Shown here: one piece after another, positions 3,509-55,950 of the stretch
How positions within the stretch are numbered: position 1 is the stretch's first letter
Layout: each line of letters opens with the position of its first letter
Source of the DNA: Bacteroidales bacterium UBA3724
GTDB taxonomy: Bacteria; Bacteroidota; Bacteroidia; Bacteroidales; P3
Assembly (NCBI GenBank): GCA_002371315.1
Contig: DFHL01000013.1
Coordinates: forward strand, 5,742 to 69,741
Direction of reading: 5' to 3'
DNA length: 64,000 bases
Program-made: the position numbers and the translations under genes
The notes under the pieces: generated by a model
Database searches by the model: none
What the model was told of the DNA's origin: nothing
What the model saw: only the letters and a program-made list of their open reading frames with translations

Positions 3509-4549
3509 CTACTGCGCACCAAGAATCGTCACCGCAGCGGCACGACCGTCGTTGACGGCATCGTTTATCGACATTGGCCGCTTGCAGGAGCCACACACAA
3601 ACAAGCCCTCCTGCCCTGTCAGGCAGTCGCCCAAATGCGGGTCGGCCGACTGCGCGAAACCATATTCGCCACAGATATTGCAGGCCTTGGCAAGACAGCG
3701 CGTACCCTCCGAGGCTTCCATTCCAACCATCAGCACCAACAAATCGGCAGTCATCTTGAGCGGCAGACCCATCAGGGTGTCTTCGGCCTTGATTTGCACA
3801 CGGCCGTCGAAAGTGCCCGAAGCCTCTGAAATGCGGCCACGCACATAGCGCACACCATACTCCTGTTGCGACTGACGGTAAAGCTCCTCGAAATGCTGAC
3901 CCCACATACGCAAATCCATATAGAATATATAAGCCTCCGTATCAGGCATCATCCGCTTTAGTTCTATAGCCTGCTTGACGGCGGTCACGCAGCATACCTT
4001 TGAGCAATAATGGTTGCCCGACTTTTCGTCGCGCGAGCCCACACACTGCAAAAACACGACGCGCTTCGGCTTCTCGCCCAGCGAGTTGACAACCTGATTG
4101 TAGCGTATCATCTTCTCCATCTCCAACGACGTCACCACACCGCCATATATGCCATAGCCAAGCTCCTCCTTGCGGCGGGCATCGAACGGAGTGTAGCCTG
4201 TGGCCAGCAGGACACCGTCGCTATAGTAGGTTGAACCCTTGCCGTCCACGACCTTCCAGCCCTGACCCTCGCGTCGCAAATCTACAATCTCGGTGTCGGA
4301 ATGGAGAGTAATATTGTTGTTCAGAAGCTTCTTGTTCATCTGTTCCACGATGTCGCTCGCAGCGGCAAAATTAGGGAAAAGGAACGCTTTGTCGGCCACG
4401 TTTTTCAGCGGAGAGGACGATTTTTCAAAAAGCAACACTTTCAGTCCCTGCTTGGCAAGCACCGAAGCAGCCTCGATGCCCGCCGGGCCTGCGCCTATGA
4501 TGGATATTGATTTCATTGCTGATATATTGGTTATACTATTAATACTCAT
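3509..4549 (-). CDS. HdrA-like FAD/Fe-S flavoprotein (short form)
   Basis: Dinucleotide fold IIGAGPAGIEAA and the HdrA signature CVGSRDEKSGNHYCSKVCC. I chose the start at 4549 because it forms an ATGA overlap with the upstream stop. The ORF track extends to 4567. Confidence 0.8.
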   Translation of the reverse strand: MSINSITNISAMKSISIIGAGPAGIEAASVLAKQGLKVLLFEKSSSPLKNVADKAFLFPNFAAASDIVEQMNKKLLNNNITLHSDTEIVDLRREGQGWKVVDGKGSTYYSDGVLLATGYTPFDARRKEELGYGIYGGVVTSLEMEKMIRYNQVVNSLGEKPKRVVFLQCVGSRDEKSGNHYCSKVCCVTAVKQAIELKRMMPDTEAYIFYMDLRMWGQHFEELYRQSQQEYGVRYVRGRISEASGTFDGRVQIKAEDTLMGLPLKMTADLLVLMVGMEASEGTRCLAKACNICGEYGFAQSADPHLGDCLTGQEGLFVCGSCKRPMSINDAVNDGRAAAVTILGAQ

Positions 4550-5613
4550 TGTTCTACCTTGAGGCATTCGGGCTGTGCCGGCCTGGGCAGCAGACGGCCG
4601 CTGACGCCTTTGTATTTCTCATCGGGATTAAAGGCTATGCCTATCTTGTTGAACAGCGGCTCGCTCTGCACCTGGTGCAGTTGGAATCCCAGCTTCCAGG
4701 GGTCGTAGCCCAACAGCAGGCCTGTCAGCTCCTCGTATGTCAACACCGGAATGCCATAACCCTGCCTGTCGTATGTCTTGTGCTCCATTTCGGCAATCGT
4801 GTATTGCCATTTGTCCAGGAACATATTGCATCCAGGGCAGTTGGTCAGTATAAAGTCCGGCTCATAAGGCTCCATCGACTGGAATTTTTTCTTTGTATTG
4901 GCAATCGAATAGCCACGATTTTCCTGCACAAGATACTGGCGGAATCCGAAACCGCAACAATGGCGGCGTTCGGGATAGTCGATTACCTCTCCGCCCCAGG
5001 CCTCGATCATTCCAGCCAGGACGTAAGGAAACTCCGCCTTGCCGATGCCGCGTTCGGGAAATATCTTGGCATAGTGGCATCCTATATGCTCCACCACGCG
5101 CAACGGTTTGCCCGTAAAGCGGTTCACGAGCTGATACTTCATCTTGGGTTTCAGGTCGAAACGGAACTTGTATATCACATCCGAAGGGTGGGCGATGTTT
5201 TTCGGGATCTTGAATTCACGTTTAGTCGCTTCCCAAAGGAACTGTCGTGCCTGGTCAAGCAGGGCAGGATCATTCTCCCATTTCTCAATCACTTCCGAGA
5301 AAACGCCAAACGAAGTGACGCACGACGGCACATAGTTCTCGTATCCGCACTCTGTCATCAGCGAGAACAGGCGTGCCACGACGGTCATCGTCGTCTCGAA
5401 CGGCACCACATCGCTGTGGTAGCCGATGCCCGTACAGGTATGCTGATGAGGATTGTCGCATATATCCTTGCCAAGCTCGTCGCGCAGAATGCGCAGGAAA
5501 GCCGCTTCCGAGCCAGGGAAAAAAGTCTGGCGGATGCAGCTGCGCTCATAGAAGAAATGGTCGTCGGCAATCTCCTTCTGGTATTCGTTCCAAAAACGTT
5601 TTTCCATATTCAC
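4546..5613 (-). CDS. HdrB-like CCG-domain subunit
   Basis: 355 aa. C-terminal CCG motif (RRHCCGFG ... NCPGCNMF) as in heterodisulfide reductase subunit B / GlpC-type proteins. Confidence 0.78.
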   Translation of the reverse strand: MNMEKRFWNEYQKEIADDHFFYERSCIRQTFFPGSEAAFLRILRDELGKDICDNPHQHTCTGIGYHSDVVPFETTMTVVARLFSLMTECGYENYVPSCVTSFGVFSEVIEKWENDPALLDQARQFLWEATKREFKIPKNIAHPSDVIYKFRFDLKPKMKYQLVNRFTGKPLRVVEHIGCHYAKIFPERGIGKAEFPYVLAGMIEAWGGEVIDYPERRHCCGFGFRQYLVQENRGYSIANTKKKFQSMEPYEPDFILTNCPGCNMFLDKWQYTIAEMEHKTYDRQGYGIPVLTYEELTGLLLGYDPWKLGFQLHQVQSEPLFNKIGIAFNPDEKYKGVSGRLLPRPAQPECLKVEQ

Positions 5614-5637
5614 AGATTTCTTATGAATTCAAACAAA

Positions 5638-7515
5638 TCATTTTTTTATTATATTTTCCGCCACAATCTCGGCAATATCCTTGACCGGCACATTGTCGGC
5701 TCGCGTGAAGGCCTTCTTGCACATCGGGCAGGCAGTGGCAATGACGTCGGGATCCGGGGCAAGCAGATTGTCGCGCGAGGCGTTGCGGATTTTGGTCTGC
5801 TGCTCGATGTCCAGCAGCGGATTGCCCAAGTTGAAGCCACAGCATAGGCTATGCTCGCGTTCTTCCTTGGTTTTGAGCAGCGTGGTGGCAGCCTTGAGCA
5901 CATTGCGCGGCTCGTCATAGATGCCACATCCGCGGCCCAGTTCGCAGGGATCGTGATAGGTCACCTTCCTGTCGTCCTTGCGCAGGTTCAGGCGGCCACT
6001 CTCAATCAGCATATTTATATACTCCGAGTGGTGCAGAACGGGTATCGAAAGCTTATACTCCTTCTTGAACGACTGATAGCAAATCGGGCACGAGGTGATA
6101 AGCATCGTCGCCTTGCTGTTGACGATAAGCTCCGTGTTCTTACGGCGCAGCTCGAAAGCCTGGTTCTCAAAGCCCTGCTGCAGCAGCGGGCGTCCACAGC
6201 AGATCGTTTCGTCGCGGTCCATATACCAATACTTCTGACCGGCGGCATTGAAAATCGTCTCCATCGCCTTCCCGATGCCCGGCGTGAGGTGCGACATACA
6301 GCCGCCGAAATACACCACGCGGCCTATCGAATTGAACGGCTGGACATCGCGCAGATAGGTGTACCCACCCTTGCTGTCGATATCCTTCTTGTTCTTTATT
6401 CGCACCTGACGGCGTATGACCGAAAGGTCGAGGTTCACCGGACAGTCGGCCACGCAGCGGTCGCACATTAGGCAGTTCTCGGCAATCGGCTCGGCATTCC
6501 TCTGCAGCTCCAGATTGCGGATCGACTGCAGCATATACACGCCCTGCATATTGACAATGCCGAGCTCCTTGTTCATCGGGCACCCGTCGATGCAGATGCC
6601 GCAACGCGAGCAGGCACTGAGTTCGAACATCGTATAGCCCGTCTTCTTGTCGCTGTCGTACACACCCAAGTTGCGGAAATAGATGAGGAACACCTCCGTA
6701 AAGATGTGCATATAGCGCGAGAACGGCATCAGGCAGAAGAATGCGCCCAAGGCAATGCTGTAGAGCGTCCAGCAGGTATACTCGAACGCCTCGTTGGACA
6801 GGCCCAGGGCATAAATCATATCGCCCAACGGCCCTATCATAAAACCGCCGTTGCCGTAGAGCGAAGAGGTGACCCCCTCCGACAGAAGCCTCAACGGGAA
6901 GATGCACCACAAGGCCAGCTTGGCCACGCGGTCCATAAGCGTGTGGCGCGTTGTGCGTTTCATACCCATCGGGCGCGACCACACCTTTTTGAACATTGCA
7001 AGGAAAAGTCCGCTGAGGACATAGATCAGCAATGCATCCATCAGATTGGCAAACAGTTCGGCGTGCCTGAAGGCCGAAAGGTCCACATCGTTCTCAAAGA
7101 AATTGAAGAAAATGGCCACCCAGAAAGGATGCCCGTCAGGAAACGCCAGACGCGCCTGAACCGCACCCACAACAATGAGCAGAAACCATCCGAAAGCCAG
7201 ACTGCGGTGCATATAGCCCAACAGGACATTCTTCTTCGTTATGCGCCAATGCAGCAAGCCCTCGCGGAAAGCCTCCCAAATGGCAGGCAGAAAACGCCAC
7301 GACCAGATATTCTTGCGTATAATGGCACGCTGAAGCTTGTCGAAACCGTTAATCCAGCGCCAGTACTTGACGATGGAGAAAAACAGCAGCAGAATGACAC
7401 CCAGCACAAACGGCAGCACAAAGACCGAAAACAGCGGCTCGAAGAACGACCACACTATCAGCCCCACCGCGGCCAGCCAATAGACAACCATAAAAACCAC
7501 AAACGGCCATTTCAT
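5638..7515 (-). CDS. membrane-anchored Fe-S/CCG protein (NarI/DsrM-like domain fused to HdrD/DsrK-like domain)
   Basis: 625 aa. About 270-aa N-terminal polytopic domain with conserved His (GYMHRS, SRYMHIF). This is followed by CSRCGICIDGCP and CLMCDRCVADCP ferredoxin motifs and two CCG motifs (ICCGRP...CPICY, LCCGFN...CPMCK). ATGA overlap with the upstream gene. Confidence 0.8.
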   Translation of the reverse strand: MKWPFVVFMVVYWLAAVGLIVWSFFEPLFSVFVLPFVLGVILLLFFSIVKYWRWINGFDKLQRAIIRKNIWSWRFLPAIWEAFREGLLHWRITKKNVLLGYMHRSLAFGWFLLIVVGAVQARLAFPDGHPFWVAIFFNFFENDVDLSAFRHAELFANLMDALLIYVLSGLFLAMFKKVWSRPMGMKRTTRHTLMDRVAKLALWCIFPLRLLSEGVTSSLYGNGGFMIGPLGDMIYALGLSNEAFEYTCWTLYSIALGAFFCLMPFSRYMHIFTEVFLIYFRNLGVYDSDKKTGYTMFELSACSRCGICIDGCPMNKELGIVNMQGVYMLQSIRNLELQRNAEPIAENCLMCDRCVADCPVNLDLSVIRRQVRIKNKKDIDSKGGYTYLRDVQPFNSIGRVVYFGGCMSHLTPGIGKAMETIFNAAGQKYWYMDRDETICCGRPLLQQGFENQAFELRRKNTELIVNSKATMLITSCPICYQSFKKEYKLSIPVLHHSEYINMLIESGRLNLRKDDRKVTYHDPCELGRGCGIYDEPRNVLKAATTLLKTKEEREHSLCCGFNLGNPLLDIEQQTKIRNASRDNLLAPDPDVIATACPMCKKAFTRADNVPVKDIAEIVAENIIKK

Positions 7516-7901
7516 TGTTCAGCCCCCTTTCTCACAAACGTGTTGGGCTGCACGTTGGCAAGCAGCCTCCTCATATTGATTATAAGCGAACGGGTATTGA
7601 CGCCGCGCGGGCACACCAGCAGGCATTTGCCACACAGCATACAGCGCTTCAGCTGCTCGTCCAGGCCGTCATACTGGGCCCGAAGGAACGACGTGTGGAT
7701 CTTGCGGATATTATAGTCCGTAAAGCCCGCTGCCGAGCAGGTCGCCGTGCAGCCTCCGCAGCCGATGCATAACTTGTACGAAGGCACCAGCTCGAGCAAC
7801 TTGTCGGCCTTCTCCGACCTCATCTCGTCGAAGTTGAGCTGCCTCCCTTTCGAAATCGTAAAACCAAAATTCTTCATAACTCTGTCATTCCTAATTGTCA
7901 A
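7512..7901 (-). CDS. HdrC-like 2x[4Fe-4S] ferredoxin subunit (small)
   Basis: 129 aa with CIGCGGCTATCS and CMLCGKCLLVCP motifs. Confidence 0.72.
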   Translation of the reverse strand: MTIRNDRVMKNFGFTISKGRQLNFDEMRSEKADKLLELVPSYKLCIGCGGCTATCSAAGFTDYNIRKIHTSFLRAQYDGLDEQLKRCMLCGKCLLVCPRGVNTRSLIINMRRLLANVQPNTFVRKGAEQ

Positions 7902-8502
7902 GAACCTTTTTCCTCAACTCCGTACCGCCGGTGACATCAAAGATGCGGCGCACCTCGTCAAGGTCCTCCTCGGGAATGGTGCGCAGCGCGCCGGCACCGT
8001 TGCCGTGATAGTTGGCACCAAGCTTGGGAGCAATCTCCTCTATGTTCTCGCGATACCATTCCCATATCGGGCCCTGCTCGGGATGATACTCAGGGTCCAC
8101 ACGGTCGGGATGCACACAGTAGCCAATCTCCAGAATGTTGGTCCCTATCGAGTTCATCAACTGTTTCTGCTGCAGGCCCTTCTCACTCTCGGAGTAGTAG
8201 CCCAGCTCCTGCGACGCGCGACGCAGCACACTAATAAGCTCGCCGGGCACATTGCCGCGCGGACAGCGGGTCTTGCACGACATACACTGGCCGCAATACC
8301 AAATCGTGTCGCCCTTCAGCAAAGCCTCTATCTCGTTCTCGTCGCCTCGCTGCACCGTGTCGCAGATGCGGCGGGGGTCATAGTCGTAAAACTCGGCCGC
8401 AGGGCACACCGCAGTGCACATACCGCAGTTCATACACGCCTTCAGAGCCTCGTCGGCCCTGACATCCTGTTTCAGATAATCTACCAGATTGCTCATAGCC
8501 AT
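7891..8502 (-). CDS. HdrC-like 2x[4Fe-4S] subunit
   Basis: 203 aa with CMNCGMCTAVCPAAEF and CGQCMSCKTRCPRG. TAATG junction with the upstream VOC gene. Confidence 0.75.
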   Translation of the reverse strand: MAMSNLVDYLKQDVRADEALKACMNCGMCTAVCPAAEFYDYDPRRICDTVQRGDENEIEALLKGDTIWYCGQCMSCKTRCPRGNVPGELISVLRRASQELGYYSESEKGLQQKQLMNSIGTNILEIGYCVHPDRVDPEYHPEQGPIWEWYRENIEEIAPKLGANYHGNGAGALRTIPEEDLDEVRRIFDVTGGTELRKKVLDN

Positions 8503-9572
8503 TAGTTGAATTTAACCTTGTTGAGGCCCATCAGGCGGAAAAACACCTTCGGGAATGCCTTCTCGCGGTCGCGTTTCAGCATATCGATATAGATGTGCGG
8601 ACGCTTCAGCACCGTCAGCTTGTGCGCCTCGACCAGCTCTATCAGCGTCCCGTCGGGGTCCTCGACGTATGTGAAATGGCCGCTGGCCTCACCCATATCG
8701 AAATGCTCATTGCCCTTGCAGCTGTCCACCGTGAAGGGGAAGCCCAAAGCGTTGCAATGCTTCTCCAGCGCACGCATATTCGTCACATCGAAGCAGATCT
8801 GGATAAAGCCCGGATCGCCCCACTGGCGACCCTCGTAAATCTTGCGGGGCTGGCGGTCGAGCGGCTGAACCAGCTCGATGGCGCTCTCGCCAAACAGGGG
8901 CACAAAAGCCCCCTTGCGCTTCTTGCTGCCAGCCAGCAGCACACGGCGGAAACGGCCGTTGCCGCCGCGCATAAAGGCCAGGTCGTCGAACGTGCCCGTC
9001 ACGTCGTAGACGATGCGGTCGTAGCCCAGCACGTCACGATACAGCGGAATCGTGCGCTCGATGTCGGTGCATCCAGTGGCCGCACCCACGATGCCGCCGC
9101 TCAGGCGTCCGCGGTCGATGAACACATAGCTGTCCTCGACCACCTGGAACCAGTTGCCCCACGGGTCCTCGACCACAAAGCAGCGGCGCCCGTCGGGAGC
9201 CGTGCACAGGGGCCCTATCTTGTCGTACTTCAGCAGCAGCTCCTTGCGGAAAGCCTCGACGTTGCGGCTCTTGATTCTTGCCGCAAAGATGCCCAAATCG
9301 CCCACCTGGATGTCGAAATCCACCGGCTGGGGCTTGCGCTCGCTGTACTGCCATATCTCGAATCCGCCGCCACCCTGCAGGTTGACAGCGATACAGGCGT
9401 GGCGCTTCTGCGCCTTGCCGCCGGTGTAGGGCAGCATACGCTCGGCCACCGTGTCGTCCTCAAGGATGCGCACATCCATCTGGAACATATCTATATACCA
9501 ACGCCAGGATGCCTGAAAATCAACACATCCCACGCCGACTTGCTGTATTCCTGAAACAAAGAAATCTTCCAT
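8502..9572 (-). CDS. VOC (glyoxalase/bleomycin-resistance/dioxygenase fold) family protein, multi-module
   Basis: 356 aa. Repeated beta-alpha-beta-beta-beta style modules (GIQQVGVGCVD..., FEIWQY, DPWGNWFQV, DPDGTLIELVE) typical of VOC proteins. Confidence 0.7.
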   Translation of the reverse strand: MEDFFVSGIQQVGVGCVDFQASWRWYIDMFQMDVRILEDDTVAERMLPYTGGKAQKRHACIAVNLQGGGGFEIWQYSERKPQPVDFDIQVGDLGIFAARIKSRNVEAFRKELLLKYDKIGPLCTAPDGRRCFVVEDPWGNWFQVVEDSYVFIDRGRLSGGIVGAATGCTDIERTIPLYRDVLGYDRIVYDVTGTFDDLAFMRGGNGRFRRVLLAGSKKRKGAFVPLFGESAIELVQPLDRQPRKIYEGRQWGDPGFIQICFDVTNMRALEKHCNALGFPFTVDSCKGNEHFDMGEASGHFTYVEDPDGTLIELVEAHKLTVLKRPHIYIDMLKRDREKAFPKVFFRLMGLNKVKFN

Positions 9573-9741
9573 ATCGGTTCCAAAAAATTTATTTCATTTG
9601 CCCACAAAACGACAAATGTTGCAAAAAATTATTTTTCAACGTGTTAAAAGTGCAGAAAAACTTCGCTCGTCCGTAACGTTTTCCCGCCCCGGGCCTCTGC
9701 CGACACCCGTTCCGAGCCCCTTTCACGCTCTACATCAACGC

Positions 9742-9770
9742 AAAAAAGAGGGGACCCTTCCGGATCCCCC
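9742..9770 (-). terminator. rho-independent terminator after the lipoprotein gene
   Basis: On the minus strand: GGGGATCCGGAAGGGTCCCC hairpin followed by TCTTTTTT. Confidence 0.55.
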
Positions 9771-11055: not shown

Positions 11056-12417
11056 TCAGCGCTGGACGGCCTTATAGGTGAGGAATAGGCCTATGGGCAG
11101 CATCACGAAGGTGGAAATCCACATACCGATGCTTCCGAGGGCACCCTCGCGGACGGCCTTTTCGGCTATCATTCCCACTACATAATAAAGTACAAAGAAG
11201 ATAACCGATGCCACAAGGGGCACGCCCAGGCCGCCCTTGCGCACAATGGAGCCAAACGGCGCGCCGACAAGGAAGAGCACGATACAGGCAAGGCTGAGGG
11301 TCCATTTGCGGTGCCATTCGATGTAGTGGCGGTTGATGTATTCGTTCTGCGAGGTGATGACCTGGCTGTGGATGCGGATGTCGCTTTGGCTGCGCTCGGC
11401 CTTGGCTATGGCGTCGCCGCATACGCGCTTCAGGGTTTTCAGGTCGAGCGAGTCGCACAGGTCGGAGCAGTCCACGCGCTGGCTGCGCCCGGCGGCGGTG
11501 CTTGGCGGCTTGTGTCCGTCGGCATAGCACAGCGGTACCGAATTACTCAGGTTCTCACGCTGGCTGGCGACGTTGGCGTCGCGCTGCTCTTTGAGGCGGA
11601 CGATGTTCGAGTCGAGCTGGCTGGTGTTCATCATCTGGTAGCCGCCCTGGAAGATGCTTTCGTCGGTCTTGTCGAAGGCGAAGCTCGAGAGGTCGAAGGT
11701 CATCTCGTTCTTTTCGAAGCGTATGCGCGTGAAGGGTTTGGACTCGGCGCTGCTGTTGGCATCGTTTTCGCTGTAGGAGCATCCGTCGTAGAGGGTGAAG
11801 AGCAAATAGCGCTCGTCGGGGGTGGTCTGCATCGTGCCGCGGCGGGCCACGACCACGTCGGGCTGGCTCGACGAGGTGCGATGGTCGTAGATGGTGATGT
11901 CGTGCAGCGTCTTGCCGTCGGGGTCTTTCTGGTTGACGCGTATCACGAAGCCGTCGATTTCGGAATAGTATTCGCCGGGACGGATGTTGAGGGCCGGTTT
12001 CTTGCGCGTTATGTCGTAGAGGGTTGTGCGGTATTTGAGCACCGCCGACGGCATAACATAGTCGGCAAAAAGATAGGCCACCACGGTCATCATCAGCACG
12101 ATGATGCCCATCGGCATCATTGCGCGCCACAGGGGCACGCCGCCGCTTTTGATGGCCACCAGTTCGTAGTGCTCGCCGAGGTTGCCCATCGTCATTATCG
12201 AGGCGAAGAGGACGGCAATGGGCATAGCCATAGGCACAAAGGTGGCCGAGGCGTCGAGCAGCAGCTCGGCGATGATGCCCACCGAAAGGCCCTTGCCGGC
12301 AATGTCGTCGACATACTTCCAGATGAACTGCATCAGCAGGACAAAGACGGCGATGACGAAAGTGAGGACCAGCGGCCCCACATAGGATTTCACTATCAGT
12401 TTGTCGAGTTTCTTCAT
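11056..12417 (-). CDS. LptF/LptG-family LPS export permease
   Basis: 453 aa. N-terminus KLDKLIVKSYVGPLVLTFVIAVFVLLMQFIWKYVDDIAGKGL is typical of the YjgP/YjgQ family. Periplasmic middle domain and C-terminal TM helices. Confidence 0.88.
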   Translation of the reverse strand: MKKLDKLIVKSYVGPLVLTFVIAVFVLLMQFIWKYVDDIAGKGLSVGIIAELLLDASATFVPMAMPIAVLFASIMTMGNLGEHYELVAIKSGGVPLWRAMMPMGIIVLMMTVVAYLFADYVMPSAVLKYRTTLYDITRKKPALNIRPGEYYSEIDGFVIRVNQKDPDGKTLHDITIYDHRTSSSQPDVVVARRGTMQTTPDERYLLFTLYDGCSYSENDANSSAESKPFTRIRFEKNEMTFDLSSFAFDKTDESIFQGGYQMMNTSQLDSNIVRLKEQRDANVASQRENLSNSVPLCYADGHKPPSTAAGRSQRVDCSDLCDSLDLKTLKRVCGDAIAKAERSQSDIRIHSQVITSQNEYINRHYIEWHRKWTLSLACIVLFLVGAPFGSIVRKGGLGVPLVASVIFFVLYYVVGMIAEKAVREGALGSIGMWISTFVMLPIGLFLTYKAVQR

Positions 12418-12486
12418 CTGTTGTGCAGTTTTAGTGCCGAGGCCGGCAGCGGCGACGGGCAGCGCCGGCCTCGAGTCAACATATTG

Positions 12487-13941
12487 TCAGAATCCCAGCC
12501 AGCGCAATATGTCGTTGCCGTTGGCCACAACGAGAAGTGCCAGGAGCAGGAACATACCGATGGTCTGCGACACTTCGAGGAATTTCTCGCTCGGCTTGCG
12601 GCGGGTTATGATTTCCCACAGCGTGAAGAGGATGTGGCCGCCGTCGAGACCGGGGATGGGGATGACGTTCATAAAGGCCAGGATCAGGGCCAGCAGGGCC
12701 GTGATGTTCCAGAACGAATACCAGTCCCAATGCGAGGGGAAGAGGCCGCCGAGGGTGCCGAAACCGCCGAGGCCCTTGTAGCCGTCCTTGGTGAAGAGGA
12801 TGCGCAACGAGCGGGCATAGGTGGTCATCTGTTCCCAGCCGTAGCTGATGCCCACGGGGATGGCCTGGAAGAAGGTGTAGTCGGTGTGGACGCACTCGAA
12901 GAGGTCGCGGAAGTCGGCCAGGTAGACACCGATCTTGCCTTTGCCGTCGATTTCGACCTGGACGCTGTCGAGCTGGCCGTTGCGCCACAGGCCAATAGTG
13001 GCGGTGGTGTTCTTGAGTTCGGCAAGGCGGGCCGAGATCTCGGTAAAGCAGGCCATCGGCTCGCCGTTGATGCTGACCACGCTGTCGCCTATCTGCATAC
13101 CACCGCGTTTGGCGCGCGAGCCGGGGCCGAAGTCCTTGACAACGAACGGGGCGCGGACGGAGAAGAGCAGATTGGTGTCGCGCGGTTCAATCTTGGTCAG
13201 CAGGTCGCCCGATATGGGCAGGTCGACGCGCACGACGGTGTCGCGGCAAGAGGTGGACAGGGTGCTGTCGGGGCCGTAGACGGTGTCGACGATGCTGGTG
13301 TGGCGCATAACCGAGACGACGTTGGGACGGTCGAGCAACAGCTTGTGCTGGGTCTTGACGATATCGGTCATTTCCTCGCCGTCGATGGCACAGATGATGT
13401 CGCCCGACTGGAAGCCTTCGCTCACCAGCACGGGGTGATAGTCGTAGCCCAGTTTGGCATTCTGGAGCGGCAGGTCGTTTTTGCCCCAGTGGGCGAAGAT
13501 GCAGCTGTAGAGGAGCAGGGCCGAGAGGAAGTTGACCAGCACGCCGCCGCTGATGATGCAGAGGCGCTGCCAGGCGGGTTTGGAGCGGTACTCCCACGAT
13601 TGCGGTTCGCTCTCGAGGTCGTCGGCGCCCTTGGTCTCGTCGATCATTCCGGCAATGTCGCAATAGCCGCCGAGCGGAATCCAGCCGATGCCCCACAGGG
13701 TGTTGTCCTGGTCTTCGGGGGCGAGGTTTTTCTCGTCCCACTCGTCGGGTGTCTTGTCGTTAAAGAAAAGGAAGTGCCATTTGCCGCCGAACTTCTTGGC
13801 TTTCAGGATAGAGAACTTCCAGTTGAAGAAGATGTAGAAGCGGCGGACGCGCGTTTTGAACAGGCGGGCAAAGAGGTAGTGTCCAAGCTCGTGTGTCAGC
13901 ACGAGCAGAGTGAGGCTGAGTATAAGAGCCAGTATTTTCAT
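12487..13941 (-). CDS. rseP: RIP (site-2) zinc metalloprotease RseP
   Basis: 484 aa. HELGH motif in the first TM region, central PDZ-like segments, C-terminal PIPGLDGG motif. Confidence 0.9.
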   Translation of the reverse strand: MKILALILSLTLLVLTHELGHYLFARLFKTRVRRFYIFFNWKFSILKAKKFGGKWHFLFFNDKTPDEWDEKNLAPEDQDNTLWGIGWIPLGGYCDIAGMIDETKGADDLESEPQSWEYRSKPAWQRLCIISGGVLVNFLSALLLYSCIFAHWGKNDLPLQNAKLGYDYHPVLVSEGFQSGDIICAIDGEEMTDIVKTQHKLLLDRPNVVSVMRHTSIVDTVYGPDSTLSTSCRDTVVRVDLPISGDLLTKIEPRDTNLLFSVRAPFVVKDFGPGSRAKRGGMQIGDSVVSINGEPMACFTEISARLAELKNTTATIGLWRNGQLDSVQVEIDGKGKIGVYLADFRDLFECVHTDYTFFQAIPVGISYGWEQMTTYARSLRILFTKDGYKGLGGFGTLGGLFPSHWDWYSFWNITALLALILAFMNVIPIPGLDGGHILFTLWEIITRRKPSEKFLEVSQTIGMFLLLALLVVANGNDILRWLGF

Positions 13942-13948
13942 TTCTAAA

Positions 13949-15100
13949 CTATTTGTTCATCAATTCTTTACGGACTTCGGCATCGCATTCAAGGAGCTGG
14001 TCGAAAGTCGGTTTTGCAATAAAATGGGCGCGCTCGACAGCATCGGCCACATAGTCGGCGATGTCGAGGAACCGCAGCTTGCCGTCGATGAAGCGCTGCA
14101 CAGCCACTTCGTTGGCGGCATTGAGGACGCAGGGGATATTGCCGCCGCGCTCTATGGCCTTGTAGGCCAAGGGGAGGCAGCGGAACGTTTCGGTGTCGGG
14201 ACGCAGGAAGGTCAGCTCGGGATGCTCCCAGAAGCTGAAGCGCGGCAGGTGGCTTTCGATGCGGTGGGGATAGGAAAGGGCGTACTGGATGGGCGTTTCC
14301 ATCGTCGGCGTGCCTATCTGGGCCTTGATGGAGCCATCCTCGAACTGCACCATAGAATGGACGATGCTCTGCGGATGGACAAGCACTTCGATGCGTCCGG
14401 TATCGACACCGAACAGCCATTTGGCCTCAATGACTTCAAGCCCTTTGTTCATCAGGCTGGCAGAATCGATGGTCACCTTGCGGCCCATATTCCAATTGGG
14501 GTGACGCAGCACCTCGGCAAGGCTGACTGTGGCCAGCTGGTCGCGGCTGCGGCCCAGCAGCGGCCCGCCCGAGGCGGTGAGCAGTATCTTGTCGATGCGG
14601 TTTTGCATCTCGCCCTGCAGGGTCTGGAAGATGGCCGAATGCTCGGAATCGACAGGCAGGATGGCGGCACCGTGGCGACGCGCCTCGGCGGTGACAATCT
14701 CGCCGGCGACGACCATAGTCTCCTTGTTGGCCAGGGCGATTGTTTTGCCTGCTTCGATGGCGCGCATTGTCGGCTTCAGGCCGGCAAAACCCACGATGGC
14801 GGCGACGACGATGTCGACGCAGTCCATTGCAACGGCATCGCACACCGAGCCCTCGCCGGCGAAGACCTTGACATCGGTGGCTTTGAGGGCCTCGCTGACT
14901 TCGGAATATTTGGCCTTGTCGGCGATGACCACCATATTGGGCTTAAATTCCAATGCTTGCTCTATCAGCAGGCTGGCATTGGAACCAGCCACAAGCACTT
15001 CGGCTTCGAAGAGGTCGGGATGACGACGTATGACGTTCAGCGTCTGGGTACCTATGGACCCGGTTGATCCTAATATTGCTATATGTTTCTTTCCGTTCAT
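13949..15100 (-). CDS. dxr: 1-deoxy-D-xylulose-5-phosphate reductoisomerase
   Basis: 383 aa. ILGSTGSIGTQTL NADPH-binding N-terminus, LANKE and PVDSEHSAIFQ motifs. Confidence 0.95.
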   Translation of the reverse strand: MNGKKHIAILGSTGSIGTQTLNVIRRHPDLFEAEVLVAGSNASLLIEQALEFKPNMVVIADKAKYSEVSEALKATDVKVFAGEGSVCDAVAMDCVDIVVAAIVGFAGLKPTMRAIEAGKTIALANKETMVVAGEIVTAEARRHGAAILPVDSEHSAIFQTLQGEMQNRIDKILLTASGGPLLGRSRDQLATVSLAEVLRHPNWNMGRKVTIDSASLMNKGLEVIEAKWLFGVDTGRIEVLVHPQSIVHSMVQFEDGSIKAQIGTPTMETPIQYALSYPHRIESHLPRFSFWEHPELTFLRPDTETFRCLPLAYKAIERGGNIPCVLNAANEVAVQRFIDGKLRFLDIADYVADAVERAHFIAKPTFDQLLECDAEVRKELMNK

Positions 15101-15621
15101 TTGTTTTTGCTCTCCCTCGATTCCACTTCTTCGCGCAGCAGGCTGTCGGCCTTGGACTTGACGTAAGGCGTAGGCTGCACCTTGACGCTGTCGCTGCGAC
15201 GCTGCTCGACGGCGTGGCGTTCGGCAGGGTCTTTGCCTAACATTATATATTGTATGTCGGCAAGCATTTCTTCCTGATTCTTGAGCTCGGTTTCGAGCGA
15301 ATCGATGATACGAGCGTTTTCGTATGTCTGCTCCACCATACCCGTGTTGGCATAGCCCGGTATGAGCTCGCGCAGCGGAGTGAAGGCAAGCAGCAGGGCA
15401 GTAAGGAAAATCAGCACCAGCGACGTTATGCCAAGGAAGACGAAGATGTTGATGCCCGACAGTTGGAACGATATCTTTTCTTTATAGGTATCGGTGTCGA
15501 GAACGACAAAGCGATGCTTGTGTTTCACAAGGTCGCCTATCGTGTGGCGCCCGTTCCAGAGACGCTGGAAGAAGCGCTTAACACCTGCAAAGAAGCTTGA
15601 TATCTTTCCCTTTACCGACAT
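15097..15621 (-). CDS. hypothetical single-pass membrane protein
   Basis: 174 aa with one TM helix (INIFVFLGITSLVLIFLTALLLAF) and a coiled-coil tail. 4-nt overlap with dxr. Confidence 0.6.
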   Translation of the reverse strand: MSVKGKISSFFAGVKRFFQRLWNGRHTIGDLVKHKHRFVVLDTDTYKEKISFQLSGINIFVFLGITSLVLIFLTALLLAFTPLRELIPGYANTGMVEQTYENARIIDSLETELKNQEEMLADIQYIMLGKDPAERHAVEQRRSDSVKVQPTPYVKSKADSLLREEVESRESKNK

Positions 15622-15718
15622 ACTTGTTCAGTCAAAAAAAGCGGTGCTTCGATCTCCACCTCCGCACCGCCTTGTTTTACGTTTGTCAAATACGCTGTCT
15701 CAAACGCTGTCGCTATGT

Positions 15719-17848
15719 TTAGAGGTACATAAGCCTGTTGTCGACAATCTTGATACGGCTCTGCAGCACAGGGATAATGTAGTTGAGACCATTCATACCT
15801 GCATTCTGGTATCTTTGGCGGATGCCCTCTGCATCGGCGGCCTCGACCTTGTTGTTGCTGTCGACGCTGATGACATATACGCCATTGGCACCCTGGATGG
15901 GTCCGATGATGCCGGTGTCGTTCTTGGCAGCGATGGCCGAAGTGGCTTTAGGTTCCATACCGTTGCGGCCAAGATAGCCACCGAAGGCCACATCGGCAAC
16001 TGTGTCTACGCTGACATTCAGCTTGGCAGCGATGGCGTTGATGTCATTGCTACCCTTGATGGCCTCGGCAGCCTTGGCAGCGAGCTGCTCGCCAAGTTTC
16101 TCGAGGCGCACACGGTCCTCGATAAGGGGACGTGCCTGGTCGAGGGTCAGCTGGTTGGGGACATAGATTTCGCGAAGTCCGACAACAATATAGCTGTAGT
16201 CCGAATTGTAGATTTCGCCACTTACGGCACCCGACTGGGTCTTTTCATTGAAGGCCCAGCGGACAGCGTCGCGGGTATTGGAGAATCCCGTCAGCGAGTC
16301 GCTCATCGAAATAAGCAGGGCACTGCGCATCTGAACGTTCTGCGACTGGGCTCCGTCGATCATAGCCTGGCAAGTCGAGAACTGGCTTGCAAACTGGTTG
16401 GCACGGTCGCGGACATCCTTCTCGGTATCGGTGCTGGGAGTGATGACTTTCTGGGCCAGAGCGACACGGTATTTCATCTTGGCAGCGGTTTTGCCGGTCA
16501 CCTTGACGATAAAGTAGCCTGCATTGTTGGGAAGTTCCTTCTCAAAGACTTCGCCGACATTGTGATGGACGATATCCTCGTTCAAAATGCCAAAGGCGCC
16601 ATCGGGTTGCCAGTTCTGGTCGCCAGCATTGGTGGTGTCGATCGAGAAAGCGGCAACAGCAGCCTCAAACGGCATTCCGGCCTTGATGCTTGCCATAGCG
16701 CTGTCGCGCAGATGGGCGGCCTGTTCAGGGGTACGGGTAATGCTCTGATGATAGTTCTGCGAGGGGATAAGGATCATCGATATGCGCAGGCTGTCGGGAC
16801 GCATCTCGGTCTTCAGCACCTTGCCCATAACATATTCGCCATAAGTGTGACGGTTGTATCCGTCCTTGGTCAGGTTCTGCACAACGATGGGAGCAATCTC
16901 GGCACCGGCGTGCGAAGCCTTGACAATCGAGTCGAGCGGAGCGGCAAAGATGTCGCTGCTGACGAACATCGAGTCATAGCCACCGTGCATATTGACGAAG
17001 TCGATGACGCTGTTTTCGTCCATCTGCTGCATTTCGCCCCACCATTCGGCAACTTCGCTCTCAAGCTCGGCAATGTCGTTCTGCGAAGGCTGAGCGGTAA
17101 AGACGGCATAAGCCACCTCGCGCTGCTCGCGGTTGTCCAAGCCGAAGACGCTGCGGTTCAGCTCTTTCTTATGAGTGTCAAAATACTTCTGATAGTCGGC
17201 ATCTGTCAGGTCGACCTGAACATCGGCAGCCTGTGAATAGAGCAGGCCGGCAACGCGGACATCCGAATGCTTGCTGCCCATCTCCGAAATCTTGTTGGCG
17301 AGGGTCTTGGGCATATACATACCGTTTTGCAGCAGGGATATATATTTGGTTCTCTGACGGTCCTGACGCACCTGCTCCTGGAATTTGAGCCACTGGATCT
17401 TTGCCTCCATCGTGTCGGGCATAGTCTCAATCTGGCGCACATAATTGCTGATGCCCTGACGGTCGTAGGCTCCAGTCTGAGGGTTGGTAAACTGCTGCTG
17501 CAGCGAGGGATGGATGAAGCGACCGACATACATATCGCTAACTTCCGCATCGGTGACCACCACGCCAAGCGCCGTCATTTCCTTGTCAAGCAGACGCTCC
17601 TGAACGATCTCCTGCCACACATTCTCTTTGAAGGCATAGCTGCTGTTGCCACGCATATTGTAGTCTTGCTCGCGCTGCATAAGACGGTCGCTGAAGTACT
17701 TGTAGGTCACTTCCTCGCCATCCAGCTTGGCAAAAGCCTCCTGGTTACGGTTCTTCTGAAGGTCGCCGATAATGAATGCAATGATAGCAATACCCACAAT
17801 GGTAACTGCTATCCACGAATGTTTTCTAATGTTTCCAATAATTCCCAT
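15719..17848 (-). CDS. PpiD-like periplasmic chaperone / peptidylprolyl isomerase
   Basis: 709 aa. N-terminal anchor MGIIGNIRKHSWIAVTIVGIAIIAFIIGD is typical of PpiD/SurA-N proteins. Confidence 0.85.
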   Translation of the reverse strand: MGIIGNIRKHSWIAVTIVGIAIIAFIIGDLQKNRNQEAFAKLDGEEVTYKYFSDRLMQREQDYNMRGNSSYAFKENVWQEIVQERLLDKEMTALGVVVTDAEVSDMYVGRFIHPSLQQQFTNPQTGAYDRQGISNYVRQIETMPDTMEAKIQWLKFQEQVRQDRQRTKYISLLQNGMYMPKTLANKISEMGSKHSDVRVAGLLYSQAADVQVDLTDADYQKYFDTHKKELNRSVFGLDNREQREVAYAVFTAQPSQNDIAELESEVAEWWGEMQQMDENSVIDFVNMHGGYDSMFVSSDIFAAPLDSIVKASHAGAEIAPIVVQNLTKDGYNRHTYGEYVMGKVLKTEMRPDSLRISMILIPSQNYHQSITRTPEQAAHLRDSAMASIKAGMPFEAAVAAFSIDTTNAGDQNWQPDGAFGILNEDIVHHNVGEVFEKELPNNAGYFIVKVTGKTAAKMKYRVALAQKVITPSTDTEKDVRDRANQFASQFSTCQAMIDGAQSQNVQMRSALLISMSDSLTGFSNTRDAVRWAFNEKTQSGAVSGEIYNSDYSYIVVGLREIYVPNQLTLDQARPLIEDRVRLEKLGEQLAAKAAEAIKGSNDINAIAAKLNVSVDTVADVAFGGYLGRNGMEPKATSAIAAKNDTGIIGPIQGANGVYVISVDSNNKVEAADAEGIRQRYQNAGMNGLNYIIPVLQSRIKIVDNRLMYL

Positions 17849-18023
17849 TTGTTATTGTTTTTTTATAAATTTACATAGTTATAAAGAGACACAATATGCC
17901 TCGAACAAGTTTGCAAAAGTACAAAGAAAAATCAGTATGACAAACTTTTGTGCGAAAACTTTTTGCCATTCTGCCTATTTAACATTGGATTTCAATCTTT
18001 TAAGCAAAACAAAATCCATTGCC

Positions 18024-19597: not shown

Positions 19598-20230
19598 TTA
19601 GAAGCGGATGCCGAAGGTAAACTGGATGCTGCATCCAGTCATTTGCGGTGCGTCGGTGGCAGTATAGCCTAAAGCGGTAAGGCCAGCAGGCAGTTCCGCA
19701 GGTTCGCTGCCAATGTTGGCATAATAAGGCAGCTGTGCGTGCAAACCCACGAAGGTATGCTCGCTGCTTTTGTAGTTGATGCCCATCTCGAAGTTGCAGC
19801 AGAAACCAAAACGTGCGGCAGATTCAATATTGCCGGCAAATTCGTATCCACTACCGTGGAACAGCACTCCCAAAGCGGCACCAGTTTCCAGTTCAAAACG
19901 GTTACCAAGAGGAACATAGTCACGGAAGTCTGCCATAATGTCAAGGTCGAAGAAATTCTCGTCCAATGCGCGGAACGAGGTGTTGCCGCCACGCGATCCG
20001 ATATTGAGGCCGACAAAAGCGTTGTTCTTAAAACGGTAGCCCAGCGTGATGTGTTCCGAAGGAATCATACTGTAGGCATCGGTGGGGTCGACAAAGGCCG
20101 ACACGGGTGCATAGTTACCGAACTTAGAGAAACCAAGACCGGCTTCGGTCATAAAGCCGCCTTTCGATTCCTGTGCGCCGCACACGGCAGCCACACACAG
20201 AAGAGCAGTCAGAATCAAAGTATTTTTCAT
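19598..20230 (-). CDS. outer-membrane beta-barrel (porin-family) protein
   Basis: 210 aa. Signal peptide, alternating beta-strand pattern, C-terminal aromatic residue (FGIRF). Confidence 0.75.
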   Translation of the reverse strand: MKNTLILTALLCVAAVCGAQESKGGFMTEAGLGFSKFGNYAPVSAFVDPTDAYSMIPSEHITLGYRFKNNAFVGLNIGSRGGNTSFRALDENFFDLDIMADFRDYVPLGNRFELETGAALGVLFHGSGYEFAGNIESAARFGFCCNFEMGINYKSSEHTFVGLHAQLPYYANIGSEPAELPAGLTALGYTATDAPQMTGCSIQFTFGIRF

Positions 20231-20284: not shown

Positions 20285-21094
20285 TCACCAGTCCGAATCC
20301 CAGTCGGTGCTGCTTGAGCTCCAGCTGTCGCTGCTGCTCCACTTCGAGTCGCTGTCCCAGTCGTCATCATCGTCACTCGAACCCGACGAGCCATTGTCGT
20401 ACCAGTTGGTCTGCTCGAAGGCCGTACCCTCGTGTCCGCTGTACTTGTACTGGTCGGCGTTGTCGTCGTTGATGTATTCCGACAGGGATTCCGCCTCAAG
20501 CCATTTGTCGGTAGTGGGGTCATAGCTGAACCATTTCGAATTCTGATGGTAGTATTCCGTGCCGTTGTACTTGTAATAACCCCTTGGCGGAACTCCGTCA
20601 AAAACCGAATAAGCGATAAAGAAGATCATCATTATAACCAGGAGCGTGACAAATCCGCAACCCAAACAACAATTTCTTTTCTTAAAGATATCATCTTTCA
20701 ATGCCGTGGGCTTGGCACCTGGCGAGTTGTGCTTCTGGTCGGCAATCTCGGCTTTGAGGCGCTGATATAGCTCGTTGACGGCATAGCCTTCGTCGGCACC
20801 CTTGTAGCGCACCGCGCGCTCGCCGGTCGACTTGTTCTTGTAGACAACAAAGTCGCCCGTCTCGGTCTTGTAGATGCCGAACGCCTTGGGCTCAGAAATA
20901 TCCTTGCCTATAAAGAAGCGCGTTATCTCCTCCGGGGGCAGGTTGTGGGCCACATACCACGCCTTCAGCTCCTCGATGGTCTGAGGCTGGCCTGACGCCG
21001 TGCGGTTCACGCCCGACAGAGGGGCGCCACAATGTGGGCACGACTGGCTTCGCTCGTCGATCATCGACCCACAAAAATCGCATTTGATGTTCAT
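20285..21094 (-). CDS. zinc-ribbon membrane protein with acidic Ser/Asp/Trp-rich tail
   Basis: N-terminal CDFCGS...CPHCG zinc ribbon, one TM helix (CLGCGFVTLLVIMMIFFIAY), tail ...SSGSSDDDDDWDSDSKWSSSDSWSSSSTDWDSDW. I chose the start at MNIKCDF. The ORF track extends to 21136. Confidence 0.65.
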   Translation of the reverse strand: MNIKCDFCGSMIDERSQSCPHCGAPLSGVNRTASGQPQTIEELKAWYVAHNLPPEEITRFFIGKDISEPKAFGIYKTETGDFVVYKNKSTGERAVRYKGADEGYAVNELYQRLKAEIADQKHNSPGAKPTALKDDIFKKRNCCLGCGFVTLLVIMMIFFIAYSVFDGVPPRGYYKYNGTEYYHQNSKWFSYDPTTDKWLEAESLSEYINDDNADQYKYSGHEGTAFEQTNWYDNGSSGSSDDDDDWDSDSKWSSSDSWSSSSTDWDSDW

Positions 21095-21151
21095 AGTTGT
21101 TCTGTTATTAAGTGTTTTTGATTGCTTTAAGCACAAAGCCTTTGCAACGGG

Positions 21152-21952: not shown

Positions 21953-22054
21953 TTGTTTTGCGGATTGAAATCCATTCATTATCTGCGACAAACCATAGAT
22001 TCGTCACAATACATTGCTAATCAGACACACCCTGGCATCCTACAGCGGCAGCCA

Positions 22055-22132
22055 GTTAAGGTCAAGGTTATGGTTAAAGTTAAGGTTAAAGTTAAGGTTA
22101 AAGTTAAGGTTAAAGTTAAGGTTAAAGTTAAA
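22055..22132. repeat. 12-bp tandem repeat (GTTAAGGTTAAA)n
   Basis: Four perfect units at 22079-22126, two degenerate units upstream and a half unit downstream. It abuts the stop codon of the ThrC-like gene. Confidence 0.95.
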
Positions 22133-22133
22133 C

Positions 22134-23348: not shown

Positions 23349-23372
23349 CACTACAGGTTTTAAAGTTTCAAA

Positions 23373-23430
23373 GGTTGAAGGGTTAAAAGGAGCCTGAGAC
23401 ACGCAAGCTATCCCTTTTAACCCTTCAACT
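23373..23430 (-). terminator. very strong intercistronic hairpin (terminator/attenuator or RNA-stability element)
   Basis: GTTGAAGGGTTAAAAGGA / TCCTTTTAACCCTTCAAC. 18 consecutive Watson-Crick pairs around a 19-nt loop. No clean T-run follows on the transcribed strand. Confidence 0.45.
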
Positions 23431-23440
23431 TCCCAACCTT

Positions 23441-25049: not shown

Positions 25050-25086
25050 AAAACTCCCTCTCCGAAAGGGCCGCTCTGAACTATCT

Positions 25087-55933: not shown

Positions 55934-55950
55934 ATCCTTTTTTTAAAACA

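Follow-up and report, generated by a model that had tools for sequence, protein, structure and literature searches.

A heterodisulfide reductase-like gene cluster headed by a VOC-fold protein and its linkage to sulfonolipid genes in anaerobic Bacteroidales

A stretch of 64,000 nucleotides from Bacteroidales bacterium UBA3724 (contig DFHL01000013.1, positions 5,742 to 69,741 of the forward strand; hereafter the window) carries six consecutive minus-strand open reading frames (ORFs) that fill positions 3509-9572. They encode, in order of transcription, a VOC-fold protein, two ferredoxins resembling the HdrC subunit of heterodisulfide reductase (Hdr), a membrane protein fused to an HdrD-like part, an HdrB-like protein and a short HdrA. 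An initial annotation, made from the sequence alone, had given the genes in this order, and all six ORFs are present. The best explanation of the cluster is that it encodes a membrane-anchored Hdr-like iron-sulfur/flavin complex and a VOC metalloenzyme, accessory to the sulfonolipid gene set of anaerobic Bacteroidales. That the Hdr and VOC genes share a function with sulfonolipid synthesis is very probable, because their linkage persists through many independent rearrangements. By analogy with the sHdr systems of sulfur oxidation we further propose, tentatively and with somewhat less than an even chance of being right, that cysteate synthase receives its sulfite from an LbpA-independent, menaquinone-linked sHdr-like complex, which would form it by oxidizing sulfide or sulfane sulfur.

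Relatives of the VOC protein were sought with an alignment of VOC sequences as query, each GTDB species being represented by a single genome. At least 560 stretches matched, and the best 80 of these were all from Bacteroidales metagenome-assembled genomes (MAGs) of rumen, hindgut and human gut. The gene-order census was built on a set of 85 loci, mostly one per GTDB species, in which the six window proteins were placed by tblastn and the neighbouring ORFs were also clustered. The VOC gene adjoins all five Hdr genes in about 39 of the 85 loci, mostly from distinct GTDB species and with protein identity down to 38-60%, a recurrence beyond what chance would give. The clustering showed three extra genes to recur in the VOC loci, encoding a 421-aa alpha-oxoamine synthase, a ThrC-family pyridoxal phosphate (PLP) enzyme and a short-chain dehydrogenase/reductase (SDR), and the VOC gene adjoins at least one of these sulfonolipid genes in about 55 loci. 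The initial annotation had cast the VOC protein as the leader of an Hdr operon, a description that is too specific: the gene is tied at least as often to sulfonolipid genes, also where no Hdr genes are nearby, and the Hdr set is found without it as well.

The recurrent alpha-oxoamine synthase resembles cysteate fatty-acyltransferases most closely. The 421-aa locus consensus matches Alistipes finegoldii SulA (PDB 7u7h, 1e-164) and an entry named ‘cysteate-C-fatty acyltransferase’ (28eh, 1e-158), and serine palmitoyltransferase (Spt) at only 1e-62. The window encodes an orthologue of SulA/CapB (23441-24706, minus strand, 421 aa) that is 57% identical to this consensus and scores 295 bits on the Bacteroidota Spt model, against a cut-off of 640. 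It carries the SulA-specific active-site lysine (in YAKSLPMP), a position occupied by alanine in Spt (PMC9304779). Next to it lies the gene for a threonine-synthase-family PLP enzyme (22134-23402, minus strand, 422 aa, PALP 9e-42) with an N-terminal Cys4 ribbon. Its match to TIGR03844 (2.6e-30, 105 bits) is below the cut-off of 325, and ThrC models score it higher (9e-42), also below cut-off; the homologue recurrent in the loci (about 409 aa) has the same ribbon and a match to TIGR03844 at 7e-28, likewise below cut-off. This gene always adjoins the acyltransferase gene in the census loci, and gut Alistipes and Odoribacter are reported in a review to possess an archaeal-type cysteate synthase homologue instead of CapA (PMC10191378). 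On these two grounds the enzyme is a candidate archaeal-type cysteate synthase. The third gene encodes an SDR (21152-21991, minus strand, probable start ATG 21952; adh_short, NF004825) that is 78% identical to the 266-aa SDR recurring beside the VOC gene and is, by analogy with PMC11211663, a candidate 3-ketocapnine reductase. Cysteate synthase, cysteate fatty acyltransferase and 3-ketocapnine reductase are the enzymes of sulfonolipid synthesis (PMC11211663, PMC11525784), and by sequence the three genes together match this capnine/sulfobacin pathway.

In the window itself the cluster and the sulfonolipid trio are 11.6-15 kb apart on the same strand, with housekeeping genes between them; the acyltransferase gene is located 13.9 kb upstream of the VOC start and the end of the SDR gene 11.6 kb upstream. 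The initial annotation had stated that none of the usual partners of Hdr-type proteins was in view. This stands for Dsr, Qmo/Apr, Mvh, Flx, methanogenesis and LbpA/TusA-like genes, none of which was seen in the window, but the recurrent sulfonolipid partners at 21152-24706 had been overlooked.

Downstream of the trio, on the same strand, are genes for a 283-aa zinc-ribbon protein (20285-21136) and an outer membrane beta-barrel protein (19598-20230). The region of about 300 nt upstream of the acyltransferase gene (24808-25100) is strongly G-rich on the minus strand (GGGG/GGTG runs). The few ORFs in it are short and spurious, and a TATTTTTG box lies 91 nt ahead of the start codon. The window also encodes a true Bacteroidota Spt (55951-57135, minus strand; 662 bits, NCBIfam cut-off 640), whose neighbours (54812-59209, minus strand) are a 373-aa protein without family match, a DeoC-like aldolase and a LutB/LUD-like iron-sulfur protein. 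Both lipid classes, sphingolipids and sulfonolipids, are probably made by this organism.

In the shorthand used here for gene order, V denotes the VOC gene, C1 and C2 the HdrC-like genes 1 and 2, D the membrane/HdrD-like fusion, B the HdrB-like gene and A the short HdrA gene, and cfat, cys and sdr denote the genes of the cysteate fatty-acyltransferase, the cysteate-synthase homologue and the SDR. The order V-C1-C2-D-B-A stands alone in 11 loci and is followed by a convergent sdr-cys-cfat in eight. The sulfonolipid genes precede it in six loci (cfat-cys-sdr-V-C1-C2-D-B-A) and follow it on one (V-C1-C2-D-B-A-cfat-cys-sdr). A different arrangement is found in seven species, where the five Hdr genes lie inside the sulfonolipid operon in the order C1-B-A-C2-D (V-cfat-sdr-C1-B-A-C2-D-cys, seven loci), and V-cfat-cys-sdr-C1-B-A-C2-D occurs in a single locus. 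All nine are packed into a single tight operon in a human-gut Rikenellaceae MAG (L067), where the Hdr genes separate the SDR gene from cys. About 20 loci have the VOC gene and sulfonolipid genes with no Hdr gene within 10 kb. Reduced sets consist of V-C1 only (seven loci: L037, L048, L056, L057, L066, L069 and L075) or V-C1-C2-D only, without HdrB and HdrA (five loci: L031, L034, L038, L041 and L042). When loci were found from the fusion protein, the VOC gene was directly upstream in five of six, whereas in the sixth (L089) the five Hdr genes are not preceded by it. VOC-SDR pairs also occur with nothing else nearby, the SDR gene being the tightest partner of the VOC gene. In another locus (L087) a MATE transporter gene (12427-13803) is situated between HdrB and HdrA, and MazG/RelA synteny is the same as in the window.

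Two loci of one species, L084 and L085, show how the Hdr genes are placed. Their VOC proteins are identical and their flanks are 98% identical, but L084 has a segment of 5,064 bp (12346-17409) with the genes C1-B-A-C2-D that L085 lacks. It fits precisely between the stop codon of cfat and the start codon of cys, and what is left of the SDR N-terminus stands at its beginning. The presence or absence of an Hdr cassette within a sulfonolipid operon is here a natural polymorphism. The same slot between cfat and cys is occupied in L001 and L002 (‘bacterium P3’) by the gene of a 184-aa cupin (17463-18017) with a faint match to cysteine dioxygenase (CDO_I); this cupin may represent another route to oxidized sulfur. 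In several species cys is followed by a divergent MarR gene, a gene of the YeiH/TauZ family (PF03601, ‘putative sulfate exporter’) and a gene for a conserved membrane protein of 91-107 aa, a set seen in L084 (18706-20811), L085, L086, L047 and L050.

Domain assignments were made with Pfam and NCBIfam hidden Markov models (HMMs), folds were compared by Foldseek searches of AlphaFold models against the PDB, PDB sequences were searched as well, and conservation of cysteines and histidines in the Hdr-type proteins was read from alignments of relatives (45 sequences for the fusion protein). The searches upheld the initial calls of a VOC protein, two HdrC-like proteins, an HdrD/CCG part, HdrB and HdrA, and with them the picture of a membrane HdrE/HdrD-type module joined with soluble parts of HdrA, HdrB and HdrC type. 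Since all curated HdrA, HdrB, HdrC, DsrK, GlpC, GlcF, LdhH and TfrB models give scores far under their cut-offs, the cluster proteins are, on sequence, relatives of the characterized Hdr and CCG families and not members of them.

The fusion protein (5638-7515, 625 aa) would link the complex to the membrane. Its soluble part (Pfam CCG 4e-23 and Fer4) has two CxxCxxCxxxCP motifs (C302-C312 and C348-C358) and two complete sets of CCG ligands (C406/C439/C440/C476/C479 and C524/C558/C559/C596/C599), all of them 100% conserved; its membrane part has three invariant histidines (H89, H103 and H270). The AlphaFold model has a mean predicted local distance difference test score (pLDDT) of 72.8, with five to six membrane helices at pLDDT 70-90. 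The best PDB match is EtfD of Mycobacterium smegmatis (9ojn), both by phmmer (2.5e-19) and by Foldseek (E 6.4e-17 over 744 columns), and LutA is among the fold matches of the CCG part. The initial annotation of a membrane domain joined to an HdrD/DsrK-like domain was right in substance. Its NarI/DsrM-like label rests on fold, through the similarity to EtfD, and not on an HMM, as the membrane domain has no Pfam match at E<=1. The most fitting description of the protein is an HdrE/HdrD-type fusion whose topology resembles that of EtfD. Because its best fold match has a menaquinone site and three histidines are invariant in the membrane part, we presume, from sequence and model, that it is a candidate menaquinone-interacting, haem-binding subunit. 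In the window protein and its closest relatives an extra N-terminal helix of about 25 residues is present, which most homologues (about 600 aa) lack.

EtfD is a single-polypeptide electron-transferring flavoprotein (ETF):menaquinone oxidoreductase. Besides five transmembrane helices and one haem b it contains two CCG domains and two [4Fe-4S] clusters, and according to its authors it can be superposed on a model of HdrDE; its CCG sites are degenerate and non-catalytic (PMC13083937). The window protein shares the build of the EtfD (Rv0338c) and EMO proteins, i.e. transmembrane helices, two [4Fe-4S] clusters and two CCG domains in one chain. However, EtfD has shielded CCG sites, which hold a linear [3Fe-4S] and a His-ligated cluster, and it receives electrons from EtfAB, whereas the CCG sets of the window protein are complete, and neither the window nor any of the loci has etfAB genes. 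With HdrDE of Methanosarcina and with DsrMK(JOP), Tmc and Hmc the fusion has in common a membrane part that presumably binds haem b, two [4Fe-4S] clusters, two complete CCG motifs and a presumed link to quinone or quinol. It differs from them in being one polypeptide that is accompanied by soluble HdrA, HdrB and two HdrC proteins, in having neither genes for methanophenazine or CoM-CoB nor a DsrC/DsrAB context around it, and in the missing Pfam NarI match.

HdrC-like protein 1 (7891-8502, 203 aa) has two CxxCxxCxxxC motifs (residues 23-33 and 70-80) that are 100% conserved, and a C-terminal extension in which C129 and H140 are invariant; it matches NCBIfam HdrC models at 1e-26, far below their cut-offs. 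HdrC-like protein 2 (7512-7901, 129 aa) also has two CxxCxxCxxxC motifs, with matches to Fer4 families and to HdrC models (6.5e-12). The HdrB-like protein (4546-5613, 355 aa) matches NF041780 (HdrB) at 3e-41, below cut-off, and HdrB chains in the PDB at 3e-27. It had been annotated as a CCG protein, and only one complete motif is found, in the C-terminal half (C179, C219, C220, C259 and C262); the N-terminal half retains three invariant cysteines (C26, C60 and C98). The short HdrA (3509-4549, or to 4567; 346 or 352 aa) has the GAGPAG motif and a cluster motif CVGSRD-x7-CSKVCC, with a spacer of seven residues and not the eight first reported, in which C169, C182, C186 and C187 are invariant. 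It combines a FAD/thioredoxin-reductase-like domain with one [4Fe-4S] motif and has no ferredoxin domains. Residues 12-343 align with residues 1-337 of the 349-aa sHdrA of Hyphomicrobium, known from a crystal structure (6TJR, E 2.5e-52). The alignment does not establish orthology with sHdrA, as the architecture is shared but the sequence similarity is no higher than to methanogen HdrA. From methanogen HdrABC the window proteins differ in size, domains and motifs, the methanogen HdrA being about 650 aa long with N-terminal, inserted and C-terminal ferredoxin domains (346 aa in the window), and its HdrB having two complete CCG motifs (one and a three-cysteine remnant in the window).

The VOC protein (8502-9572, 356 aa; Pfam PF00903/PF13669) has a Pfam Glyoxalase match in its C-terminal half (8.9e-10) and a weak one in its N-terminal half. 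The AlphaFold model (pLDDT 91.4) shows two domains with four beta-alpha-beta-beta-beta modules. Sequence searches of the PDB gave no match, and its fold neighbours there (PcpA, GLOD4, maize glyoxalase I and a Bacillus MhqO-like protein) are at TM-scores of 0.5-0.6 and 12-16% identity; being distant and of differing enzyme classes, they do not allow a function to be assigned from the fold. The protein does not reach the equivalog level for glyoxalase I, with 20.6 bits on TIGR00068 (cut-off 120), and TIGR03645 gave 25 bits (cut-off 262). It belongs to a compact family of about 355 aa; a search of 1.84 billion representative proteins gave 562 matches at E<=1e-3, of which 129 reached E<=1e-30. Near-invariant motifs in 43 diverse members are GGGGxEIWQ, DPxGN, RxWGDxGFI(H/Q)xCFD and YxEDPDG, and QGGGGxEIWQ and RxWGDxGFI(H/Q) may be used as signatures. 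A metal site is predicted from the same alignment at Q10/Q11, E72, Q258 (His in most relatives) and E312, which we take to be of the glyoxalase-I/epimerase type, unlike the 2-His-1-carboxylate site of dioxygenases. Plant and yeast glyoxalase I, GLOD4, PcpA, MhqO-like proteins and methylmalonyl-CoA epimerase resemble the VOC protein in their four-module fold, and glyoxalase I and methylmalonyl-CoA epimerase also in the metal site, but at 12-16% identity to the known two-domain enzymes, and with scores under all curated cut-offs, it represents a distinct family. Cys260 and Cys285 are well conserved within the Bacteroidales clade and are not near-invariant across the 43 members of the wider family. 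The protein could be an enzyme handling a sulfur substrate, or an isomerase or epimerase of the same pathway. The two-gene V-C1 loci suggest that it may work with an iron-sulfur partner; the reactivation of XylE, a catechol dioxygenase of VOC fold, by the ferredoxin XylT provides a precedent.

The six genes are tightly packed. The VOC and first HdrC genes overlap by 1 nt (TAATG), and the second HdrC gene and the fusion gene meet at ATGA. The other junctions hinge on the choice of start codon: the 11-nt overlap between the HdrC genes applies only to TTG 7901, an in-frame ATG at 7877 leaving a 13-nt gap (the protein is 129 aa from the former and 121 aa from the latter, and homologues are called at 93-121 aa); the gap ahead of HdrB is 24 nt with GTG 5613 and 30 nt with ATG 5607; and the ATGA between HdrB and HdrA applies to the HdrA start at 4549, the longest ORF beginning at 4567. 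With the first-named of these starts the junctions are those of the initial annotation. A terminator scan inside the cluster gave no site above the shuffled background, and we infer from gene packing and conservation that the six genes are co-transcribed. In the intergenic region upstream (9573-9770), the terminator scan and inspection of the sequence showed a hairpin-plus-T-run terminator of the preceding lipoprotein gene at 9770-9749, followed by an A/T-rich stretch of about 175 nt, the presumed promoter region of the VOC operon. This stretch has no exact Bacteroidetes TAnnTTTG box, and the regions upstream of the VOC and acyltransferase operons of the window have no 9-mer or longer word in common. 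Long antisense ORFs on the plus strand at 4549-5847 (432 aa), 11311-13947 (878 aa) and 22014-23363 (449 aa) are codon-bias artefacts over real genes.

The search of the available literature did not yield a described function for this arrangement, as the initial annotation had also stated, nor a published link between Hdr-like or VOC genes and sulfonolipids, nor an account of the sulfite source for sulfonolipids in anaerobes. Published accounts of the sulfonolipid pathway give only three steps and N-acylation, and none of the papers searched mentions a VOC protein or Hdr-like genes. The closest functional analogy is to the sHdr systems, which are proposed to oxidize protein-bound sulfane sulfur to sulfite (PMC6067878). 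The sHdr systems of Hyphomicrobium, Acidithiobacillus, Aquifex and others share with the cluster a short HdrA with FAD, one [4Fe-4S] cluster and no ferredoxin domains, as well as two HdrC-like and two CCG-containing subunits. According to a survey (PMC11094781), the core synteny is shdrC1B1AHC2B2 in type I and shdrC1B1AHB3-etfAB-emo in type II; the order C1-B-A-C2 followed by a CCG protein, of the type shdrC1B1A(H)C2B2, is matched in the variant loci. The survey also has electrons of type II reaching menaquinone by way of EtfAB and an EMO-type membrane protein, a proposed exit that the cluster, with its own EtfD/EMO-like protein, would share. The differences are also clear. The cluster has no sHdrH, no soluble B2 or B3 and no etfAB, and its order in the window is C1-C2-D-B-A; where sHdr systems use soluble B2/B3, EtfAB and EMO, the cluster has its second CCG subunit joined to a membrane domain; its HdrB has only one complete CCG motif; and the host is a strictly anaerobic fermenter. 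A term search of the main text of the survey does not find Bacteroidota named there.

A role in sulfite supply is favoured because sHdr, with its short HdrA, two HdrC, two CCG subunits and similar gene order, is proposed to yield sulfite, which is the co-substrate of cysteate synthase. The scheme that we infer for substrate, electron flow, quinone link, assembly and VOC function would be as follows. The HdrE/HdrD-type fusion, connected to menaquinone, the two HdrC ferredoxins, HdrB as catalytic subunit and the sHdrA-type flavoprotein would form one complex. Sulfide or thiol-bound sulfane sulfur would be oxidized with water at the non-cubane clusters of HdrB and/or the fusion, as has been put forward for the sHdr complexes of sulfur oxidizers. 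The HdrC ferredoxins and HdrA would hand the electrons on to the fusion, where they would reach its [4Fe-4S] clusters and haem, and from there to menaquinone and finally to fumarate reductase. The sulfite could then be captured as cysteate (from O-phosphoserine and sulfite, by cysteate synthase), which the SulA orthologue would condense with acyl-acyl carrier protein, and reduction by the SDR would give capnine. The standard potentials are -116 mV for HSO3-/HS-, -74 mV for menaquinone and +33 mV for fumarate/succinate, and sulfide-to-sulfite oxidation coupled to fumarate respiration is therefore feasible. The PF03601 exporter and MarR genes after cys in several loci and the CDO-like cupin between cfat and cys may be seen as supporting hints. 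A ‘complete heterodisulfide reductase system’ has been reported for anaerobic Bacteroidota isolates from sulfidic Black Sea water (PMC11129491); these isolates belong to capnine-producing genera, two facts that the authors did not join.

Several observations weigh against this sulfite-supply proposal. A tblastn search of the window with GcvH/LbpA and TusA probes gave nothing significant; no LbpA or lipoylation genes are among the called genes of L001, L003 and L084-L089; sHdrH is absent from the window and the loci examined; and TusA, DsrE and rhodanese are not among the recurrent neighbours in the 85 loci. HdrA residues 113-341 score 184.7 bits against methanogen HdrA, more than the 181 bits of the whole protein against sHdrA. 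Some strains and species retain VOC-cfat-cys but do without the Hdr cassette, so sulfite must come from elsewhere too, and the proposal does not explain the reduced sets (VOC-C1, and VOC-C1-C2-D without HdrB and HdrA). Finally, intact CCG motifs are classically disulfide-reducing and fit the reverse direction equally well. The fuller claim, that the cluster represents a third, LbpA-independent type of sHdr-like system, membrane-wired and driven by menaquinone and fumarate, in which anaerobic oxidation of sulfide or sulfane sulfur to sulfite serves biosynthesis of the sulfonolipid head group, is possible but on balance doubtful.

The main rival is the reductive direction, which we consider unlikely. 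The intact CCG sites would be where a disulfide or a persulfide is reduced, with menaquinol, or NAD(P)H via HdrA, as donor. Thiol attack might free sulfite from thiosulfate or polysulfide, and the complex might then regenerate the carrier, a thiol or a cysteine that could belong to the VOC protein; or it might recycle a low-molecular-weight disulfide. Cassette-less strains would rely on general thiol reductases. The architectures that come closest, HdrDE and DsrMK, are those of quinol-driven reductases; the fusion, unlike EtfD (PMC13083937), has the full set of catalytic cysteines in both CCG motifs; and the cassette is optional while the VOC gene is retained. The conservation of Cys260 and Cys285 of the VOC protein in the Bacteroidales clade would agree with a carrier role, although these residues are not nearly invariant across the wider family. 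Genes for handling thiosulfate or polysulfide are not nearby, and the sHdr-type gene order and the short HdrA speak for the oxidative systems.

EtfD as best fold match of the fusion is consistent with a quite different role, as an electron sink for lipid tailoring: the fusion would take electrons from dehydrogenation of the capnoid base or acyl chain (e.g. anaerobic desaturation) to menaquinone, HdrA/HdrB or the VOC protein would catalyze the oxidation, and the VOC protein would be an epimerase or isomerase acting on 3-ketocapnine. The tight partnership of the VOC and SDR genes, including the lone pairs, and a VOC metal site of glyoxalase-I/epimerase rather than dioxygenase type point in the same direction. 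Nevertheless, EtfAB and acyl-CoA-dehydrogenase-like genes are absent, the CCG sites are intact and not degenerate as in EtfD, and the combination of short HdrA, HdrB and HdrC is known solely from thiol and sulfur chemistry, which makes this rather improbable.

It is also conceivable, if very unlikely in our estimate, that sulfide or sulfane sulfur is oxidized for detoxification or respiration and that the sulfonolipid genes merely use or tolerate the product. Such an interpretation was offered for the Hdr genes of the sulfidic-water Bacteroidota (PMC11129491); rumen and hindgut are sulfide-rich habitats, and the Hdr set occurs in L089 with neither the VOC gene nor sulfonolipid genes within 9 kb and in 11 loci with the VOC gene only. 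This would leave unexplained why Hdr genes are inserted inside the sulfonolipid operon and why the linkage is kept through many rearrangements, and a sulfite-oxidizing or -exporting enzyme is not consistently present. The least probable of the alternatives, again very unlikely in our judgement, is a general fermentative or respiratory oxidoreductase (a CCG dehydrogenase of lactate, glycolate or glycerol-3-phosphate type, or an NADH-linked Hdr) whose linkage is incidental: CCG proteins do serve in LutABC, GlpABC, GlcDEF and SdhE, TfrB, LdhH and GlpC models give weak matches and LutA matches the CCG part in fold, but these scores are far under the cut-offs, LutB/LutC, GlpA/GlpB and GlcD/GlcE partners are absent from the cluster, and the sulfonolipid linkage extends over dozens of species and several gene orders.

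An identity with GlpC, LutAB, GlcF, TfrB or LdhH was rejected directly, as the GlpC, GlcF, LdhH and TfrB models give 49-113 bits against cut-offs of 278-800 and no partner subunits are found; the LutB-like gene of the window (58052-59209) is 48 kb off and unrelated to the cluster. The initial annotation had named a characterized system of the GlpC/LutAB type as the case that would overturn it. The proteins do not fall into such a system, EtfD being the best structural match, yet with intact CCG sites and no EtfAB in the present case.

Sulfonolipids of gut Bacteroidota act on host TLR4 signalling, and the genes for their biosynthesis are depleted in inflammatory bowel disease (PMC11525784); the producers concerned are Alistipes, Odoribacter and relatives. 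The published pathway begins at cysteate or sulfite, and the Hdr module offers a concrete answer to the question of where the sulfite originates in strict anaerobes. To our knowledge, the origin of sulfite for coenzyme M in methanogens is the same open question. If the sulfite-supply proposal is true, it would be the first described route to sulfite for sulfonate biosynthesis in strict anaerobes of sulfidic habitats. Fermentative anaerobes and a biosynthetic role would be added to what is known of Hdr-like sulfur oxidation, and a new membrane-fused architecture would be defined. The VOC family, which is widespread (in at least 560 species genomes) and unannotated, would gain a function as a new enzyme of the pathway, and sulfonolipid producers could be better predicted from metagenomes. 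Even if the proposal is wrong, the VOC and Hdr genes stand out by their linkage as unrecognized components or modifiers of sulfonolipid metabolism.

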